From Patescibacteria group bacterium (GTDB lineage Bacteria; Patescibacteriota; Minisyncoccia; Phycocordibacterales; Zambryskibacteraceae): a stretch of DNA of 64,000 bases. Position 1 is the first letter of the stretch. Each line of letters starts with the position of its first letter. Of the stretch, positions 5,208 through 50,180 are shown piece after piece. The DNA lies in assembly GCA_038061835.1 (NCBI GenBank), contig JBBTYJ010000015.1, positions 3,907 through 67,906 of the forward strand. The letters run 5' to 3'. The position numbers and the translations under genes were made by a program. The notes beneath the pieces were generated by a model. The model worked only from the letters and a program-made list of their open reading frames with translations. It made no database searches and was not told where the DNA came from.

Positions 5208-6428
5208 ATGGAATTTTTAAAAAGACATACTGCCCTCCTGATACTCGGAACAATTATAGCTATCGCCTCGTTTAATCTCGGCTTTAATGCAGGAGAAAAA
5301 AGTCTTTCCACCACAGTAGTCGGAATAGAAAACATGACGGAAGGCGAGCCGTCTAACGTAGACTTTGCCCCCTTTTGGAAAGTGTGGAATCTTATCAATA
5401 CAAAATATGTACCCACCAGCACCACGACCAAAGATGTCAACAGCCAAGAAAAGGTTTGGGGCGCTATTCAGGGTTTGACCAATTCACTCGATGATCCATA
5501 TACAGTTTTCTTTCCTCCTGTAGAATCGGAGCTTTTTGCATCGGATATCCGCGGTAACTTCGAAGGAGTGGGGATGGAAATAGTTGCCAAAGAGGGAGCA
5601 ATTACCGTTGTCGCGCCACTTAAAAATTCCCCGGCAGCCAAGGCCGGCATCATGGCTGGTGACAGAATTATTAAAATAGAAAACAAGGAGACCAGCGGTC
5701 TTTCCACCGAAGAAGCCGTTCAACTCATACGCGGACCAAAGGACACTCGAGTGACCCTAACAATCTTTAGAAACGGTATTAAAGAACCTTTTGAAATAAA
5801 AGTAATACGTGATGTCATAGATGTCCCAACCATTAATACCAAAAAATTGCCGGGAGGAATTTTTGTCATTGAGCTCTATAATTTTTCGGCTCAATCTCCC
5901 AATCTTTTTCGTCTCGCCCTGCGCGAATTTATCCTATTAGGTGATAACAAATTAATCTTGGATCTACGCGGTAATCCGGGCGGATATCTGGAGGCGGCGA
6001 TTGATATGGCCAGTTGGTTCTTGCCTTCGAGCAAAGTGATAGTTAGAGAGGATTTCGGATCATCACGAGAGGAAAAAATCTACCGCAGCAAGGGTTATGA
6101 TATATTCAACGAATCTTTAAAACTTGTCATCCTGGTTGATGGAGGTTCCGCCTCCGCCTCAGAAATATTAGCAGGTGCCTTATCTGAACAGGGTAGGGCG
6201 ATTTTGGTCGGAGACAAGACTTTCGGCAAGGGATCTGTTCAAGAGCTGATAGACATCACGGCAGACACTTCGCTGAAAGTTACTATTGCCAGATGGCTAA
6301 CTCCAAACGGCGTATCTATCTCCAAAAATGGCATCGAACCAGAGTATCTTGTTAAATATACTCTGAAAAATAGAGAGGCCGAACACGATCCACAACTTGA
6401 AAAAGCTATTGAAATTTTAAAACAATAG
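5208..6428 (+). CDS. ctpA: Carboxy-terminal processing protease (S41 family, CtpA-like) with N-terminal TM and PDZ domain
   Basis: PDZ segment GVGMEI..., S41 motifs ILDLRGNPGGYLEAAIDMASWF and TFGKGSVQE; start taken at MEFLKRH (TM helix) because the upstream track extension overlaps cysS. Confidence 0.8.
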   Translation: MEFLKRHTALLILGTIIAIASFNLGFNAGEKSLSTTVVGIENMTEGEPSNVDFAPFWKVWNLINTKYVPTSTTTKDVNSQEKVWGAIQGLTNSLDDPYTVFFPPVESELFASDIRGNFEGVGMEIVAKEGAITVVAPLKNSPAAKAGIMAGDRIIKIENKETSGLSTEEAVQLIRGPKDTRVTLTIFRNGIKEPFEIKVIRDVIDVPTINTKKLPGGIFVIELYNFSAQSPNLFRLALREFILLGDNKLILDLRGNPGGYLEAAIDMASWFLPSSKVIVREDFGSSREEKIYRSKGYDIFNESLKLVILVDGGSASASEILAGALSEQGRAILVGDKTFGKGSVQELIDITADTSLKVTIARWLTPNGVSISKNGIEPEYLVKYTLKNREAEHDPQLEKAIEILKQ

Positions 6429-11596: not shown

Positions 11597-12475
11597 TCAT
11601 TTATTTCTGATTTTACCAAGATTGAAATGTTTTCGATTTACCCAAGCTAGTTTTTTTTCGTCGAAAATTGCACCTCCTTTATGAACTTTCGAGAAATCAA
11701 AAACATTTATCAATTCATCAAGAGTAAAAATTTCCTGCTCCGTACCCGGATTCCAACCCAAGAGAGCCAAGTAGTTAATAATAGCCACAGGTAAATATCC
11801 TTTTTGTCTATAATAATCAAGCGAAACTGATTCCCCGTGCTTGCGTTTGGAAAGCTTTGATCTATCCGGAGCCAAAATCAGAGGGAGGTGCGCATAGATT
11901 GGCCGTGGCGCGTCGATTGCCTCCTGAATCAGAATCTGTCTCGGAGTGTTGGAGATGTGGTCCTCGCCGCGGATCACATGTGTAATCTCCGCTTCAAAAT
12001 CATCAACCACAACCGCTAAGTGATAAAGGGGTTCGTTAAGATTTTTTGCAATAATAAAATCTCCAAGTTCGGTGGTATCAAACTCTACCTTACCGCGAAC
12101 CAAATCCTCAAAAACCATTTGTTTATTAGGATTGCGAAAACGCACCACTTCCCTATTCTCACCCTCTGTCTCCGTCGAAATATAGGCCTTATTGATTTGT
12201 ATTAATTTATTCAAGTGAGATTTGTAAATTTCCGTGCGTTCAGACTGATGCCAAAGCTCGCCATCCCTTTCAAAACCGAGCCATTTGAGACTTTCAAGCA
12301 TGCTTTCTTCATATTCCTTCTTGGAGCGCACTCTGTCCGTGTCTTCTATTCTAACTACAAAATCTCCACCATTCTGTCTGGCAAATAGATAGTTGAAAAG
12401 CGCAGTCCTCACGTTACCGATATGCAGCGGTCCTGTCGGCGATGGTGGAAATCGGGTAATAATTTTTTGATTCAT
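11597..12475 (-). CDS. Glutamyl-tRNA synthetase catalytic-domain-only protein (GluQRS/YadB-like length, no anticodon-binding domain)
   Basis: Class-I motifs PSPTGPLHIGN and KLSKR; 292 aa ends right after the catalytic domain (..WVNRKHF). Confidence 0.75.
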   Translation of the reverse strand: MNQKIITRFPPSPTGPLHIGNVRTALFNYLFARQNGGDFVVRIEDTDRVRSKKEYEESMLESLKWLGFERDGELWHQSERTEIYKSHLNKLIQINKAYISTETEGENREVVRFRNPNKQMVFEDLVRGKVEFDTTELGDFIIAKNLNEPLYHLAVVVDDFEAEITHVIRGEDHISNTPRQILIQEAIDAPRPIYAHLPLILAPDRSKLSKRKHGESVSLDYYRQKGYLPVAIINYLALLGWNPGTEQEIFTLDELINVFDFSKVHKGGAIFDEKKLAWVNRKHFNLGKIRNK

Positions 12476-29729: not shown

Positions 29730-29800
29730 GGGCCTATAGTTCAGTGGCAGAACGTAGCATTCGCATTGCTGAAACGGCGGTCCGATTCCGCCTAGGTCCA
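29730..29800 (+). tRNA. tRNA-Ala (anticodon CGC)
   Basis: Acceptor GGGCCTA/TAGGTCC with G3:U70, D-stem GTTC/GAAC, anticodon stem TAGCA/TGCTG with loop TTCGCAT, T-stem GGCGG/CCGCC, discriminator A; CCA not encoded. Confidence 0.8.
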
Positions 29801-29843
29801 CTGCTTCGCCGAGGCTTCGCAGTGCACAGCACTAATTGGTAAG

Positions 29844-38866: not shown

Positions 38867-40198
38867 TTACCTAGCGGACAATTTTTTCAGAGATATATTG
38901 GCACCATCTTCAGGGAACGAACTGTTCCAAAAGGGTCTGATCGTGGCAGTGGCTTTTATAATAGTCGGATAGTTATTGAGAATAGAAGGAAGATCTCTTT
39001 TGCTTTTCCCAATTAAATCTGATTTGAGTGCCACTTCGTCTACACGCCATATTGCTATTGCTTCTCCTTGCACGGAAAATCTGATTTCGTCTGAAGGTAT
39101 TGAGTCTGTGGCAGTATTGTTGATGAAAGCAAAGCCGAGTGAATCAAGTTCAACAATATCGACTGACTCGCCAATTGCCAACATAATCTTATCCGCAACC
39201 AAGCGATTGGCCAAATCAACCTTTTTAAATATAATGCCGGACAAATCAGCGTGCATATTTATCATGACACTGTTTTCATTATCGGAATCAGTTTGAGGTA
39301 AATCCCAGAAAGTCACCGAGGAAAGAGAAGATAATAAAATGAAATCTTCCGGCACTTGCGCCTTGGCTTCAGAAATAAGCTCCTCTTTTAACAGTTTTTC
39401 AAGTTGAGATTTTGCCGCAACTTCGTCTTCATTCTTTATGGCTCTTTCCCCGGCAATAGCCCCACCGGACATATTGGTCTTGGAACGAGCATAAACAGAC
39501 GAGAAAAGCGACGTACCCTTAAGACCAGGAAGAATGAAATCAGTAAGACCGATGTTAAATTCTTTTCCTGGACGTTCCGCATACACCACAATTTCCAGAG
39601 TGCCTGGGTTTTCTTTGCCGCCAATCACCTTCTTTTCCGGCACGGTAATAGCATCGGGCACTTGATAAACTTGGCCGTCTGGAGTTTCAAAACGCGTTGT
39701 TGCCCTGAATCTTTGTTCCGTTACACTAGTGTTATAAATAATAATAGTTCCACTGGCTTTTTTCTCCTCGCTGGTTTCTCCAGACGCAGATACTTTCATG
39801 CCTCTTTCTCCGGAAAGTTTAACAACGCTAAAAAGAAGATTGTCTTCGCCGGCTTTATGCGCTGTGTACAAATCGCCATTGAAAGACACTGCTTGAGATT
39901 TTGGAACATAAGCTAAAGTGGCACCATTAAATATAGACATTATGGCAAACACGAGTATTAAAAGAGCTATACCGCCCGCGATCCACTTGCGTCTACCTCT
40001 ACCGCCGATATAAGGAGTTTCCTTCGGTGGAATATTAAAGTTCTCGCGCGGTGAACCATTAAATTGGTTAGTTTCTTTTGGTACAGGCGAAACACCATGC
40101 CTTTCAAATCTGCGGCGTCCTTCCGGGATAGGAATATCTCTAATGCTTCTTTTTCGATCTGAAACAATGATGTCTTCAATATGTTTCGGCATGCTCAA
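38867..40198 (-). CDS. Hypothetical membrane-anchored extracytoplasmic protein
   Basis: Basic cytoplasmic N-terminus, single TM (IAGGIALLILVFAIMSIF), ~340-aa extracellular region; no recognisable domain; 10 nt downstream of alaS fragment. Confidence 0.5.
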   Translation of the reverse strand: MSMPKHIEDIIVSDRKRSIRDIPIPEGRRRFERHGVSPVPKETNQFNGSPRENFNIPPKETPYIGGRGRRKWIAGGIALLILVFAIMSIFNGATLAYVPKSQAVSFNGDLYTAHKAGEDNLLFSVVKLSGERGMKVSASGETSEEKKASGTIIIYNTSVTEQRFRATTRFETPDGQVYQVPDAITVPEKKVIGGKENPGTLEIVVYAERPGKEFNIGLTDFILPGLKGTSLFSSVYARSKTNMSGGAIAGERAIKNEDEVAAKSQLEKLLKEELISEAKAQVPEDFILLSSLSSVTFWDLPQTDSDNENSVMINMHADLSGIIFKKVDLANRLVADKIMLAIGESVDIVELDSLGFAFINNTATDSIPSDEIRFSVQGEAIAIWRVDEVALKSDLIGKSKRDLPSILNNYPTIIKATATIRPFWNSSFPEDGANISLKKLSAR

Positions 40199-40207
40199 AA
40201 TTATAAC

Positions 40208-41503
40208 TTATTTTTTAAATTTATGCTCTCCACTAGAACGCGAGAGAGCTTGATGTTTTCTCATTTCCGCATCAAACACAGCACGATCAATAGACACACC
40301 CTTCTCTTTAGCAAGCTCCTCGGTTAATTCTATCGGGAAACCGTAACTTGTGAAGAGCACAAACGGGTCCACACCTTTATCAAATTGTTTGAGGCCTGAT
40401 TCCAAAGTGTTGCTAAATTTCTCGATTTCCGCCGAAATAATTTTTTTTGTTTCCGGATGAAAAATATAAAGTCCTTGATAACTATTGTGGTGAGTAACAA
40501 CGTCCACCGCAGCATTTATTATTTCGAGACTACTTCCTATTTTGTGCGCGTGAACATAGGCGCGACGAAGAAGTCGCCGTAGAATGTATCCTCTATCGGT
40601 ATTCGACGGCAAGACACCGTCATTTATTATAAACACCGAAGTGCGAATATGATCAGCAATAACTCGTTGGGAATGAGCGTTATCTGAATTCGATTTATCC
40701 AAAATCGCCATGATTGGCAGAAAGAGGTCGGTTTCAAAAATATTATTTTTATTTTGGAGAGCCATAGTTAAACGTTCCAGTCCCGCGCCTGTATCAACAT
40801 TTTTTTGTAAAAGTTTGTTTGTAATTTGACCGTTCTTTTTTTCATACTCCATGAACACATCGTTCCAAATTTCCACCACCTTCTGTTCCGTATCGGCTTT
40901 TTGATATTCCTCTTTAGTTAAATTTCCCAAACCATGAGGGGTGATGTCGTAGAACATCTCGGTATCGGGGCCACAAGGACCGTTTTCTCCCACACCCCAC
41001 CAATTAGATTTTGCTCCCATGAAAAAAATTCGGTTCTCCGGCACGTATTTCTGCCAAATTCTGAATGCTTCTTCGTCTTTAGGAGCATTCTTATCACCTT
41101 CAAATACCGTAATGTAAAGTCGTTTTGGATCAATGCCAAATCCTTTTTCCTTATCCGTCAATAACTCAAAACTCCATTGAATTGCGTCTTCTTTAAAATA
41201 ATCCCCCATAGACCAATTACCCAGCATTTCAAAAAAAGTATCGTGAGTATTGTCGCCAACTTCTTCAATATCTTGCGTACGTACACATTTCTGAATATTA
41301 ACCAAACGTTTACCCAGGGGATGTTTTTGTCCCATAAGATATGGCACCAGAGGTTGCATTCCCGCGGTGGTAAAAAGTACCGAAGAATCATTCTCCGGCA
41401 CAAGCGAAGCCGAAGGGATAACTTTATGTCCCCGCTTTTCAAAAAAGGCCAAGAATCGTCGTCGAATTTCTTCGGAGCGCATATCTGAAACAATATAACA
41501 CAA
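40208..41503 (-). CDS. alaS: Alanine--tRNA ligase N-terminal fragment (aminoacylation + tRNA-recognition domains only; no editing or C-Ala domain)
   Basis: EIRRRFLAFFEKRGHKVIPSASLVP, LFTTAGM, THDTFFEMLGNWSMGDYFK class-II AlaRS motifs; stops at 431 aa and the next gene is unrelated. Confidence 0.8.
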   Translation of the reverse strand: MCYIVSDMRSEEIRRRFLAFFEKRGHKVIPSASLVPENDSSVLFTTAGMQPLVPYLMGQKHPLGKRLVNIQKCVRTQDIEEVGDNTHDTFFEMLGNWSMGDYFKEDAIQWSFELLTDKEKGFGIDPKRLYITVFEGDKNAPKDEEAFRIWQKYVPENRIFFMGAKSNWWGVGENGPCGPDTEMFYDITPHGLGNLTKEEYQKADTEQKVVEIWNDVFMEYEKKNGQITNKLLQKNVDTGAGLERLTMALQNKNNIFETDLFLPIMAILDKSNSDNAHSQRVIADHIRTSVFIINDGVLPSNTDRGYILRRLLRRAYVHAHKIGSSLEIINAAVDVVTHHNSYQGLYIFHPETKKIISAEIEKFSNTLESGLKQFDKGVDPFVLFTSYGFPIELTEELAKEKGVSIDRAVFDAEMRKHQALSRSSGEHKFKK

Positions 41504-42112
41504 TTAGATTAGAGTCTTAAGTACCTTAAAATCTTCTTTAAGGGTATCGAGCAGATGCTGATTGTAAATTGCGGCAGCGGGGTGATAAAGAGGAATGAAT
41601 TTAAAGGTCAGACCTTGAGAATTTATATCTAAGGTCTGACCTTGGAAGACTTTGCCGTGTAATTTACTTATAGAATCCAGTTCCCATTCAAGACCATATC
41701 TCGTCATCACATATTGCATTGAGAATCGACCGAGCGTTGCTACCACTTTCGGTTTAATAATTTCAATCTGACGATCCAAAAACGGCGCATAGATTTCTAT
41801 CTCGTCGGGATACGGATCGCGATTACCTGGTGGACGATCTTTGACAATATTAGTCACGTACACATCCTTCCTGTCTATGCCAACAGAAGTTAAAAGTATG
41901 TCCAAGACCTTTCCTGCCCGCCCGCAAAACGGCTTGCCGGTCTTGGCTTCGTTTTCCCCTGGTGCCTCGCCGATAAACATTATGTCAGCTGAATGATTTC
42001 CTTCTCCTATTACCGGGAAATACTTGTTCTTTACTCGTTCGGCATAAAGCGGTGAGGCCACAAGACCAATAATCTCGTTCTTAATTTTTTTTAATTCTTC
42101 ATCACAATTCAT
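41504..42112 (-). CDS. Uracil-DNA glycosylase, family 4 type
   Basis: GEGNHSADIMFIGEAPG motif and 4Fe-4S-type Cys pattern; 202 aa. Confidence 0.8.
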   Translation of the reverse strand: MNCDEELKKIKNEIIGLVASPLYAERVKNKYFPVIGEGNHSADIMFIGEAPGENEAKTGKPFCGRAGKVLDILLTSVGIDRKDVYVTNIVKDRPPGNRDPYPDEIEIYAPFLDRQIEIIKPKVVATLGRFSMQYVMTRYGLEWELDSISKLHGKVFQGQTLDINSQGLTFKFIPLYHPAAAIYNQHLLDTLKEDFKVLKTLI

Positions 42113-42959
42113 TTATTTCGTTCATGACGGGTTCTGTATTAAAATTTTTGCCGAGAAATTCATTCAATAATTTTGGATTCTTTTTTATGTCTGAGCAAAG
42201 CACAGTTCTGTTTTCCAAAAGTGCTTTTTTGTCGTTGGTTGAGAGCGAAATCAGACAAGTGATCGGGTGAAGCGCCTCGCTTTCAATCATATCCTGCAGA
42301 CTTCCTTTTTCAGGATAATTCCACCCGATCATAGTCAGATTCTGACAGATTCCATAATGAATAGCAGTGCTTGAGAACTTGGTATTGGTCACAAGCCAAC
42401 AGCCAGTAATGTGCCGATTTGAAGCGCCATAATCAAAAACATTGTCGCGCAAATCATCAAATCTTGCCTTAATATAGAGAACTACTTTCAAATCGGATTT
42501 TGTACCCAGATCATTATGAAACTTTGCTTCAATCATTATTAGTTCTTTTTCGTTGTAAGCCACCACGTCAACTTCGTGCGCCACACATTCGCCAAGCACA
42601 GTTTGACGAGTCTGACATTTGTAACCCTTGGCTTCAAGCACTTTGGCAATAAAATCTTCAAACGGAAAACCTGACGGTCCGAGATCCATCACTGCTCGGC
42701 GGAGAGAATAACTTCTAGCAATCGGTTTGCTTATTTTCTGAAGTACAGAAAAGGCGTGTCTGTAAATATCGTTAGTAGTCATTTCGTTGTGAAGCTCTGG
42801 CCAGATATGCGACCTTACTTGTTCTACGGCTTCTTCCGTCGCGCCAGCATGAAAAAGAGAGGCCATGAGCTTCTCTTCATCAAAAATTTCCCGCTCCCCG
42901 TTCGCCTTGAGAACTGTTACTTGTTTGCTTAGTTGTGTCATTTCATCATTATACCTCAC
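42102..42959 (-). CDS. ATP-cone domain fused to PD-(D/E)xK restriction-endonuclease-like (Mrr_cat-type) domain
   Basis: N-terminal ATP-cone (VLKANGEREIFDEEKLMASLFHAG...), then FEDFIAKVLEAKGY...VDVVAY...IMIEAKFH (D...ExK); overlaps the UDG gene by 11 nt. Confidence 0.55.
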   Translation of the reverse strand: MRYNDEMTQLSKQVTVLKANGEREIFDEEKLMASLFHAGATEEAVEQVRSHIWPELHNEMTTNDIYRHAFSVLQKISKPIARSYSLRRAVMDLGPSGFPFEDFIAKVLEAKGYKCQTRQTVLGECVAHEVDVVAYNEKELIMIEAKFHNDLGTKSDLKVVLYIKARFDDLRDNVFDYGASNRHITGCWLVTNTKFSSTAIHYGICQNLTMIGWNYPEKGSLQDMIESEALHPITCLISLSTNDKKALLENRTVLCSDIKKNPKLLNEFLGKNFNTEPVMNEINEL

Positions 42960-47999: not shown

Positions 48000-50180
48000 T
48001 CAGGTTACAATGCTGACAATTTTCCCAGGTATCATAATAATCTTCTTGGGATTTTTTCCACCAAGCCATTTTTGAACCTCTGACAGAGCCAAGACGTTTA
48101 TTCTTATTTCTTCCTCACTTTGACTGCGAGTAACAAGCAAATTAGCTCTCACCTTACCATCAACTTGCACAGCCAAATTTACTTCATCTTTTACCAATTT
48201 CTTCAAATCGTAAGTCGGCCAACTTTGGACATGAATGGAATCTTTGTGTCCGAGAGATGCCCATAATTCTTCGGTAATATGCGGAGCAAAAGGCGCAAGA
48301 AGTAAAATTAAAGTCTCGAATTCTTTTTGGAAAATTTCTTTTTGCTTATCCAGAGCATTGACGTAGATCATCAGAGCAGACACCGCAGTATTAAATCCCA
48401 TAGACTCTATATCGTCAGATACTTTCTTAATCGTTTGATGCATCAAGGTCTCGCTCTTTAAGGTCAGACCTTTGGAAACTTTGGATTGAAGCCGCCAGAC
48501 CTTCTCCAAAAATCTCCGCGGACCAACAAGCGCATCTTCGCTCCAAGCAATGGCTTGTTCGAATGGACCCATAAACATCTCGTAGAGCCGCAGGGTGTCC
48601 GCACCAAAACGTTCTGCTATAGTGTCGGGATTAATGACATTGCCTTTTGATTTACTCATCTTCTCTCCCCCCTCGGCTAAAATCAGTCCGTGAGAAGTAC
48701 GTTTCTTGTATGGTTCGCTCGTGGGAACAAGTTTCAGATCATAAAGAAATTTGTTCCAAAAACGCGAATATAAAAGATGAAGCACCGTGTGTTCCATACC
48801 GCCGTTATACCAGTCAACCCCGCCATGGCGGGGCAAGTCGCCATCCAGCCAATATTTCAGTTTATCCAGAGATGCAAATTCTCTATCATTAAACGGGTCG
48901 CAATAACGTAGGAAATACCAGGATGATCCGGCCCAATTTGGCATGACGTCAGTTTCCCTTTTGGCTTGTTCATTACAATTTGGACATTTGACATTCACCC
49001 ATTCCGTGATATTAGCAAGCGGAGATTCACCATCCGGTCCAGGTTCATATTTATCCACTTTAGGCAGTTCCACCGGTAAATCTTTTTCCGGTACCGGCAC
49101 AACGCCACACTTGTCACAGTGAATCACCGGAATGGGCTCACCCCAATAACGCTGACGTGAGAAAACCCAATCGCGTAGTTTGTACTTGACGACCCTTTTG
49201 CCAAAATCTTCGAATTTAGCTCTTTGGTATTCCTTAATAATTGCTAAATTATGTTTCTTTGCAAATATCATATCGCGTTCATCATCGGCAGGAACACCCA
49301 TGATAGCGCCGGTACCATAATCAGACATTACATATTCTGCCTCCCAGACCGGAATCTTCTCTTTGGTCGCGGGATTAGTCACGAAGCGACCAGTAAATTT
49401 ATCTTCCTTGCCATTAACCACGACAAAAGTGGCTCCAAAAATCGTATCAGGCCGTGTGGTAAAAATTTCAACATCATCAAATTTAATCAGTACCCCTTCG
49501 CTCCTTCCGATCCAGTTTTTTTGTTGGGTTTTGACTCGTTTCGGATAATCTACGCTGTCTAAATCTTTTTCAAGTCTTTCGGCATATTTAGTAATAGCAA
49601 GCATCCACTGTTCTTTCTCCTTCTGTTCAACAGATGTGCCGCAACGTTCACAACCACCATCAACCACTTCCTCATTGGCCAGACCAATCTTACATTTCGG
49701 ACACCAATTAATTGGAATCTTTGCCTTGTATGCCAAACCTTTTTCAAGAAATTTAAGAAATATCCACTGCGTCCATTTGTAGTATTTGGGATTTGAAGTA
49801 TCAATCTCTCTAGACCAATCAAAAGAGAGGCCTAATCTTTTAAGTTGCGCACGAAAATTGTCTGTATTTTCTTTTGTAATCTCTGCAGGCTGTCTGCCAG
49901 TTTTGATCGCATAATTCTCCGTTGGTAAACCGAATGAATCCCAGCCGATCGGATACAGGACATTAAATCCTTCCATCCATCTTTTACGCGCAATAATATC
50001 CATCGCTGTATAGGCTCTCACGTGACCAAGATGAATCCCCACACCAGATGGATACGGAAACTCTACCAATGCGTAATATTTTGGTTTCTTGGAATTATTG
50101 TTCGCTTGATAGATTCCGGATTTTTCCCACTCTGTTTGCCACTTAGTTTCTATCTCTTTAGGATTATATTCCCTAGCCAT
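48000..50180 (-). CDS. leuS: Leucine--tRNA ligase
   Basis: PYPSGVGIHLGHV HIGH region, CP1 TTRPDT motif, KMSKS; 726 aa. Confidence 0.9.
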   Translation of the reverse strand: MAREYNPKEIETKWQTEWEKSGIYQANNNSKKPKYYALVEFPYPSGVGIHLGHVRAYTAMDIIARKRWMEGFNVLYPIGWDSFGLPTENYAIKTGRQPAEITKENTDNFRAQLKRLGLSFDWSREIDTSNPKYYKWTQWIFLKFLEKGLAYKAKIPINWCPKCKIGLANEEVVDGGCERCGTSVEQKEKEQWMLAITKYAERLEKDLDSVDYPKRVKTQQKNWIGRSEGVLIKFDDVEIFTTRPDTIFGATFVVVNGKEDKFTGRFVTNPATKEKIPVWEAEYVMSDYGTGAIMGVPADDERDMIFAKKHNLAIIKEYQRAKFEDFGKRVVKYKLRDWVFSRQRYWGEPIPVIHCDKCGVVPVPEKDLPVELPKVDKYEPGPDGESPLANITEWVNVKCPNCNEQAKRETDVMPNWAGSSWYFLRYCDPFNDREFASLDKLKYWLDGDLPRHGGVDWYNGGMEHTVLHLLYSRFWNKFLYDLKLVPTSEPYKKRTSHGLILAEGGEKMSKSKGNVINPDTIAERFGADTLRLYEMFMGPFEQAIAWSEDALVGPRRFLEKVWRLQSKVSKGLTLKSETLMHQTIKKVSDDIESMGFNTAVSALMIYVNALDKQKEIFQKEFETLILLLAPFAPHITEELWASLGHKDSIHVQSWPTYDLKKLVKDEVNLAVQVDGKVRANLLVTRSQSEEEIRINVLALSEVQKWLGGKNPKKIIMIPGKIVSIVT

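Follow-up and report, generated by a model that had tools for sequence, protein, structure and literature searches.

To our knowledge, proofreading of Ser and Gly is usually regarded as universal for alanyl-tRNA synthetase (AlaRS), the enzyme said to present a "serine paradox", and its editing has been considered the most universally retained. Across the three domains of life, free-standing AlaX proteins back up this Ser/Gly editing. The LeuRS, ThrRS and PheRS of Mycoplasma are reportedly editing-defective, which resembles the case described here in that reduced-genome, host-dependent bacteria have lost aaRS proofreading and tolerate mistranslation, but concerns synthetases other than AlaRS. 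AlaRS has been described as the one synthetase that keeps a four-domain prototype throughout life (PMC10036535).

Here we report a cellular, bacterial case of an architecture that has been reported naturally only in a virus. The alaS gene of a member of the Patescibacteria, contained in a 64-kb stretch of DNA (the whole of the sequence analysed, hereafter the window), encodes an aminoacylation domain and a helical tRNA-recognition domain only. Its closest precedent is the Tupanvirus mini-AlaRS (TuAlaRS), an aminoacylation-only enzyme of 461 aa (Antika et al. 2023, PMC10036535) that is active, specific for G3:U70 and able to replace yeast AlaRS, and that is, according to its authors, the sole natural aminoacylation-only aaRS known (PMC10036535). 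The two proteins share the same architecture, and in each a Thr stands in place of the G3-reading Asp (T416 in TuAlaRS, T378 in the window AlaRS). They differ in that TuAlaRS is viral, derives from the AlaRS of a eukaryotic host and coexists with the full enzyme of that host, whereas the window AlaRS is bacterial, derives from the small-AlaRS of the CPR and is apparently the only alaS product of its cell; a conserved Asn that is lost in TuAlaRS is also kept in the window protein (N294). Because the nearest relatives of the window protein are all small-AlaRS of Patescibacteria, we infer that it arose independently of the Tupanvirus enzyme.

The small-AlaRS of CPR and DPANN (∼581 aa) has already been described (bioRxiv 10.1101/2023.05.29.542759), and this preprint is all that searchable literature on CPR/Patescibacteria AlaRS without an editing domain yielded, which is not proof of absence. 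Small-AlaRS is the direct ancestor family of the window protein; it shares the synteny of the window gene and likewise has Thr at the position of E. coli D400, and differs in keeping a compact editing core with HxxxH and CxxxH motifs, which the window AlaRS lacks. The E. coli fragments 441N and 461N and A. aeolicus N453, which aminoacylate tRNA-Ala and minihelices (PMC10036535), have the same boundaries and fold as the window AlaRS (3hxu, 1riq; TM 0.79-0.84), but they are laboratory truncations of editing-proficient enzymes, whereas the window AlaRS is a natural gene under selection. In the split AlaRS (alpha, beta) of Nanoarchaeum equitans the catalytic part is likewise encoded without the editing domain; there, however, the editing and C-Ala part is kept as a second gene, the split falling inside the recognition domain (PMC10036535), while in the window the editing part is deleted and about 83 kb of sequence contains no partner gene.

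The alaS gene and its product

The open reading frame at 40208-41503 on the minus strand, confirmed in the window, had been read in a first-pass annotation as an AlaRS reduced to its N-terminal 431 aa, without editing or C-Ala domains, and followed 10 nt later by an unrelated membrane-protein gene. The features of the locus, together with the presumed tRNA substrate, are as follows.

40208..41482, minus strand: alaS, encoding the mini-AlaRS, 424 aa plus stop, C-terminus ...SGEHKFKK
41483..41503, minus strand: upstream in-frame stretch MCYIVSD from TTG, a start used in the ENA call P0001 only
40200..40210, minus strand: stop codon and deletion junction, TAAGTTATAAT, the same motif being found past the truncated alaS in L008 and L010
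about 40349-40351, minus strand: Thr378 of alaS, the D400 equivalent by alignment
38867..40192, minus strand: membrane protein, 441/443 aa, conserved, with no Pfam or NCBIfam match
29730..29801, plus strand: tRNA-Ala(CGC), presumed substrate, found by ARAGORN and its sequence read directly

The length of 431 aa is that of the form beginning at the upstream TTG. As the homologs and the NCBI gene call begin at ATG 41482, the protein is likely of 424 aa (P0002 / MEK7461730.1), and the segment upstream of this ATG is probably not translated; the N-terminus M-x-S-x-E-I-R is common to all homologs. The gene does end at 40208, with a TAA read at 40210-40208, and the protein terminates right past a conserved KFK motif, ahead of the GGLAG linker. 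The membrane-protein gene adjoins it as described, although the gap is 9-15 nt, according to a start at TTG 40198 or ATG 40192, and its product is not related to AlaRS.

Reduction to the N-terminal part was borne out by profile searches. The single Pfam domain detected was PF01411 (tRNA-synt_2c; E = 9e-126, profile positions 1-434/552), with neither PF07973 (tRNA_SAD) nor PF02272 (DHHA1) found in the Pfam scan of the protein. The model for the 595-aa short AlaRS, NF002436, matched at positions 1-443/595 only with 464 bits (cut-off 529), and TIGR00344 matched at positions 1-431/847 with 428 bits (cut-off 457). The scores fall below the equivalog cut-offs of both models, for which reason MEK7461730.1 carries the NCBI name "alanine--tRNA ligase-related protein". 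The window protein is neither a canonical bacterial AlaRS (TIGR00344, ∼875 aa, with editing and C-Ala domains) nor a CPR small-AlaRS (NF002436, ∼595 aa, with a compact editing core); it is a mini-AlaRS, the product of a natural, conserved gene that ends after the recognition domain.

Correspondence to the minimal active AlaRS fragment, also proposed in the first-pass annotation, was upheld by alignment and by modelling. Over residues 1 to ∼421 the protein can be aligned without truncation to three crystallised fragments, namely 9jc7 (435 aa), A. aeolicus N453 (1riq) and E. coli 1-441 (3hxu). The AlphaFold model, for which 50 homologs were supplied (pLDDT 87.6, pTM 0.86), superposes on these structures, with a Foldseek match to 3hxu at E = 8e-38 (TM 0.84/0.81) and TM values of 0.88/0.83 against human 5knn. 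The active-site residues R69, N212, D235 and G237 of E. coli correspond to R68, N207, D230 and G232 of the window AlaRS, a mapping backed by the alignment to the PDB fragments, and their equivalents are unchanged across 30 short and 89 long AlaRS homologs. Ala233, next to the G237 equivalent, was considered as an active-site change specific to the short forms; all short forms (100%) have Ala there, yet so do 34% of the long ones, and the residue is therefore not diagnostic.

The presumed substrate, the sole tRNA that ARAGORN found in the window, has the pairs G1-C72, G2-C71 and G3-U70 and the discriminator A73, with CCA not encoded, so that the G3:U70 pair previously attributed to it is present. 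Of the Asn/Asp pair that reads G3:U70 in E. coli, the Asn303 equivalent is kept (N294) while the D400 equivalent is Thr378, and the pair is thus incomplete. Across all 119 small and mini AlaRS of CPR that were compared, long forms included, the site is occupied by T, S or Q. The Asp at this site (D400 in E. coli, D450 in A. fulgidus) reads G3, and Asn303 is retained across the CPR family. Recognition of G3:U70 by the window AlaRS is plausible from these alignments but, because the D400 equivalent is Thr, would not be guaranteed to be E. coli-like.

A second truncated synthetase, a GluRS-like protein of 292 aa with the catalytic domain only, is encoded at 11600-12475 on the minus strand, followed by a gene for an M23 peptidase; PF00749 is matched to the profile end and there is no anticodon-binding domain, the gltX_bact model gives 383 bits (cut-off 290) with model positions only up to 317/470, and the protein falls below all GluQRS cut-offs. 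The LeuRS (48003-50180, minus strand) has only 726 aa, and its matches to the CP1 editing-domain model PF13603, confined to two short stretches (best 80-138/185), suggest that the editing domain may be shortened. An IS200-like Y1 transposase gene (PF01797; 3066-3740, plus strand) lies between the CysRS and DnaB genes.

Gene order and origin of the short form

On gene order and sequence similarity, the window gene is the orthologous alaS at the normal alaS position. The order YceG-MnmA-(ATP-cone/Mrr-UDG)-alaS-[∼400-aa FtsA/PilM-like gene]-membrane protein-infA-rpsM-rpsK is kept in genomes with long and with short forms, and the protein is 62-79% identical to the N-terminal parts of bona fide small-AlaRS over the first ∼424 residues. 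No second alaS-like sequence was present in the about 83 kb searched. Genomes of either form, long or short, carry homologs of the membrane protein downstream of alaS, normally as its second neighbour, whereas in the window the gene adjoins alaS directly. On the other side, the gene at 42102-42959 (minus strand) encodes an unusual fusion of 285 aa between an ATP-cone and an Mrr-type restriction-endonuclease fold, and its position beside UDG and alaS is kept in relatives.

The usual AlaRS of the clade has ∼581 aa and consists of the catalytic and recognition domains, the GGLAG linker and a ∼155-aa editing core carrying HxxxH and CGGPH (CxxxH) motifs, with neither the beta-barrel subdomain nor C-Ala. 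Given this baseline, the window AlaRS has lost only the compact editing core of ∼155 aa and not ∼450 aa. In the long-form relatives L009, L013, L014 and L003, alaS is followed by the ∼400-aa gene and then by the membrane-protein gene; neither the editing core nor the ∼400-aa gene is present in the window, L008 or L010, where the junction TAAGTTATAAT joins the linker region of alaS directly to the region upstream of the membrane-protein gene. The ∼400-aa FtsA/PilM-like gene (11783-12952 in L009, to be compared with 40190-40210 of the window) is retained in L009, L013, L014, L003, L030 and L096, and has no homolog anywhere in the window. That these three share the junction suggests a single ancestral deletion, of ∼1.7 kb, which would have removed the editing core together with the ∼400-aa gene in this lineage.

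Judged from their gene ends and neighbours, other lineages have lost the editing domain independently. In L030 the protein ends in ...KFK followed by AVLE, a precise in-frame excision in which the original C-terminal residues and the ∼400-aa gene are kept; in L096 (P0044) it ends in ...MFKI, with a ∼391-aa neighbour kept and no editing-domain match within +/-6 kb; and P0035, whose gene order is the same, ends in ...MFKL. A neighbour-joining tree divides the short forms among several clusters, with long forms between them. Three of 80 species representatives (L008, L010 and L030) are short with no editing domain within 10 kb, while L024 keeps the last third of the domain and L085 runs off its contig. 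Intermediate states also occur: the 530-aa alaS product of L024 (9932-11521) matches editing-HMM positions 104-155 only, the HxxxH part being gone, and P0072, encoded on a 292-kb contig, is an AlaRS of 497 aa that ends inside the editing domain.

We consider it likely, with a probability of roughly 0.8, that the window gene encodes the orthologous, functional AlaRS of the organism, cut by an ancient genomic deletion to a mini-AlaRS made up of the class II (class IIc) catalytic domain and the helical recognition domain. The ancestor would have been a CPR small-AlaRS of ∼581 aa with catalytic and recognition domains and a compact, AlaX-S-like editing core. A single event of ∼1.7 kb would then have taken this core and the neighbouring FtsA/PilM-like gene, leaving a stop codon two residues past the conserved KFK.

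Competing explanations and the question of editing in trans

Database entries include CPR alaS genes interrupted by frameshifts, N-gaps or contig ends, and the stop could likewise be an assembly or sequencing error, or mark a gene that a nonsense or frameshift mutation has recently turned into a pseudogene. We regard this as highly improbable, since the same sequence is carried by three assemblies and yields an identical protein in each (NCBI, 109.8 kb; ENA, 45.6 kb; Logan contigs), and since relatives at 62-79% identity end at the same point. The window corresponds, in reverse complement, to the initial ∼64 kb of CAYILB010000002.1 (GCA_964364215.1), and its sequence has also been assembled from Hainich groundwater. 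The nearest relatives belong to Patescibacteria (Parcubacteria/Paceibacterota, Candidatus Zambryskibacteria). Among the 120 nearest homologs, 30 are shorter than 450 aa (about 400-435 aa) and one further homolog has 497 aa; most of the short ones share one C-terminal alignment column, right after KFK. The two objections that the first-pass annotation had raised against itself, a sequencing error creating the stop and an in-frame editing continuation downstream, consequently find no support: the stop recurs in independent assemblies and homologs, and no continuation or remnant of the editing domain was found in any frame by tblastn or HMM. With 88 long-form C-terminal tails as queries, tblastn matched only the last ∼45 residues of alaS itself in the window. 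An editing-core HMM of 155 positions, applied to ORFs from all six frames of the window and of 87 loci, detected the domain in 75 of 80 GTDB-representative loci and had no match in any frame of the 64-kb window nor in ∼19 kb of flanks reached via L092 and L094; a rerun with --max at E <= 10 returned noise only. A decaying gene is also at odds with the dN/dS of 0.085 between the window alaS and the 79%-identical Zambryskibacteria gene of L008 (dN 0.122, dS 1.435), a ratio that is approximate because dS is near saturation, more distant pairs being saturated outright.

The NCBI name and the scores below the equivalog cut-offs would fit a non-essential "AlaRS-related" paralog with another role, charging being done by a normal alaS elsewhere. 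This is very unlikely for a gene that sits in the exact syntenic slot of the alaS of its relatives, with high identity to their N-terminal parts, all catalytic residues invariant and strong purifying selection, and with no second copy in about 83 kb. Read-through of the stop codon, fusing AlaRS to the downstream membrane protein, was considered as well, alaS and the next ORF being in frame in the window and in L008 with the TAA and five codons between them. A shared frame is, however, expected by chance in one case in three; in long-form genomes the membrane-protein gene has this N-terminus as its own; and the spacer of L010 contains additional in-frame stops and leaves the ATG in another frame. 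We rejected the fusion because the arrangement is not conserved in L010, and its probability is negligible.

The weightier alternative accepts the same mini-AlaRS but assigns fidelity to a free-standing AlaX-type protein whose gene lies elsewhere in the genome. The enzyme would then be functionally split, like that of N. equitans or the alaS genes divided by a frameshift in other CPR lineages. AlaRS editing is reportedly under strong selection in general, as the sti mouse is said to illustrate, and free-standing or split editing ORFs do occur in CPR (L005-L007, at least 64 contigs). Against this, the junction indicates deletion rather than translocation, and every separate editing ORF examined was adjacent to alaS, at a contig edge or due to an N-gap, with none standing alone elsewhere. 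Those of L005-L007 and L089-L091 adjoin their own N-terminal gene, that of L088 is a contig-edge fragment and that of L003 is an N-gap artefact. Candidates for free-standing editing proteins were set aside on the same grounds: P0135 (124 aa, 83% identical), from a syntenic relative, results from an N-run inside a long alaS; P0148 is a fragment at a contig edge; and P0134 and P0183 adjoin frameshift-fragmented N-terminal genes. Of the top 120 relatives found for the closest editing domain, none resembled a relocated copy, and no match lay within the ∼83 kb of contiguous sequence searched, from a genome of probably 0.6-1 Mb. A separately encoded editing or C-terminal subunit, as in a split AlaRS, was absent from the 64-kb window and its ∼19 kb of flanks; improvised motif searches of the window revealed no DTD or AlaX motifs, and 20 small window ORFs contained no relevant Pfam domains. 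We hold an AlaX acting in trans to be possible but lean against it, and on balance judge that this organism probably lacks a dedicated AlaX.

The split gene of L005-L007, which represent another CPR lineage, is an observation in its own right. At about 5960-6001 the GG linker carries a 1-nt insertion (AAAGGTCGGTTTAGC vs the expected AAAGGTGGTTTAGC) that divides alaS into a 442-aa N-terminal gene and, 10 nt further on, a 140-aa editing ORF; at least 64 contigs, drawn from many samples, have this arrangement. Either a genuinely split gene or programmed frameshifting could account for it.

Proposed consequences for translation and synthetase fidelity

By analogy with 441N/461N, N453 and TuAlaRS, the mini-AlaRS produced by the proposed deletion would activate alanine and charge tRNA-Ala through contacts with the acceptor stem (G3:U70), and it would probably act as a monomer because C-Ala is absent. 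Since the D235-type amino-acid pocket is unchanged, misactivation of Ser and Gly is expected to continue, and since the gene contains no editing domain the step that proofreads them is missing from it, so that no clearance would take place in cis. If there is no AlaX, Ser-tRNA-Ala may be tolerated in a symbiont with a small proteome, and a D-aminoacyl-tRNA deacylase, provided that one is encoded, might clear Gly-tRNA-Ala. By analogy with the editing-defective Mycoplasma enzymes, tolerance of some Ser-for-Ala mistranslation would be the likeliest outcome. We put forward tentatively, at somewhat short of even odds, the wider proposal that several species of Paceibacteria/Zambryskibacteria translate with no proofreading of Ser-tRNA-Ala in cis or in trans, following at least three independent losses and long purifying selection thereafter.

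On a practical level, users should be aware that annotation pipelines label mini-AlaRS genes as "AlaRS-related", and that genomes carrying them may therefore be scored as lacking alaS. In the comparison of alaS length across relatives that the first-pass annotation proposed, a quarter of the nearest homologs (30/120) are likewise shorter than 450 aa.

The weight of the mini-AlaRS for synthetase fidelity depends on the absence of AlaX. If it is indeed lacking both in cis and in trans, AlaRS editing would for the first time prove dispensable in a cellular organism, which would imply either a constitutive Ala-to-Ser ambiguity or an unknown mechanism of discrimination. Lineages in which the editing domain has been lost repeatedly while the gene remains under selection would provide a natural system for asking whether proofreading by AlaRS is a true necessity, what level of Ser-for-Ala mistranslation is tolerable to a minimal symbiont, and how G3:U70 is read by an enzyme that has no canonical Asp.
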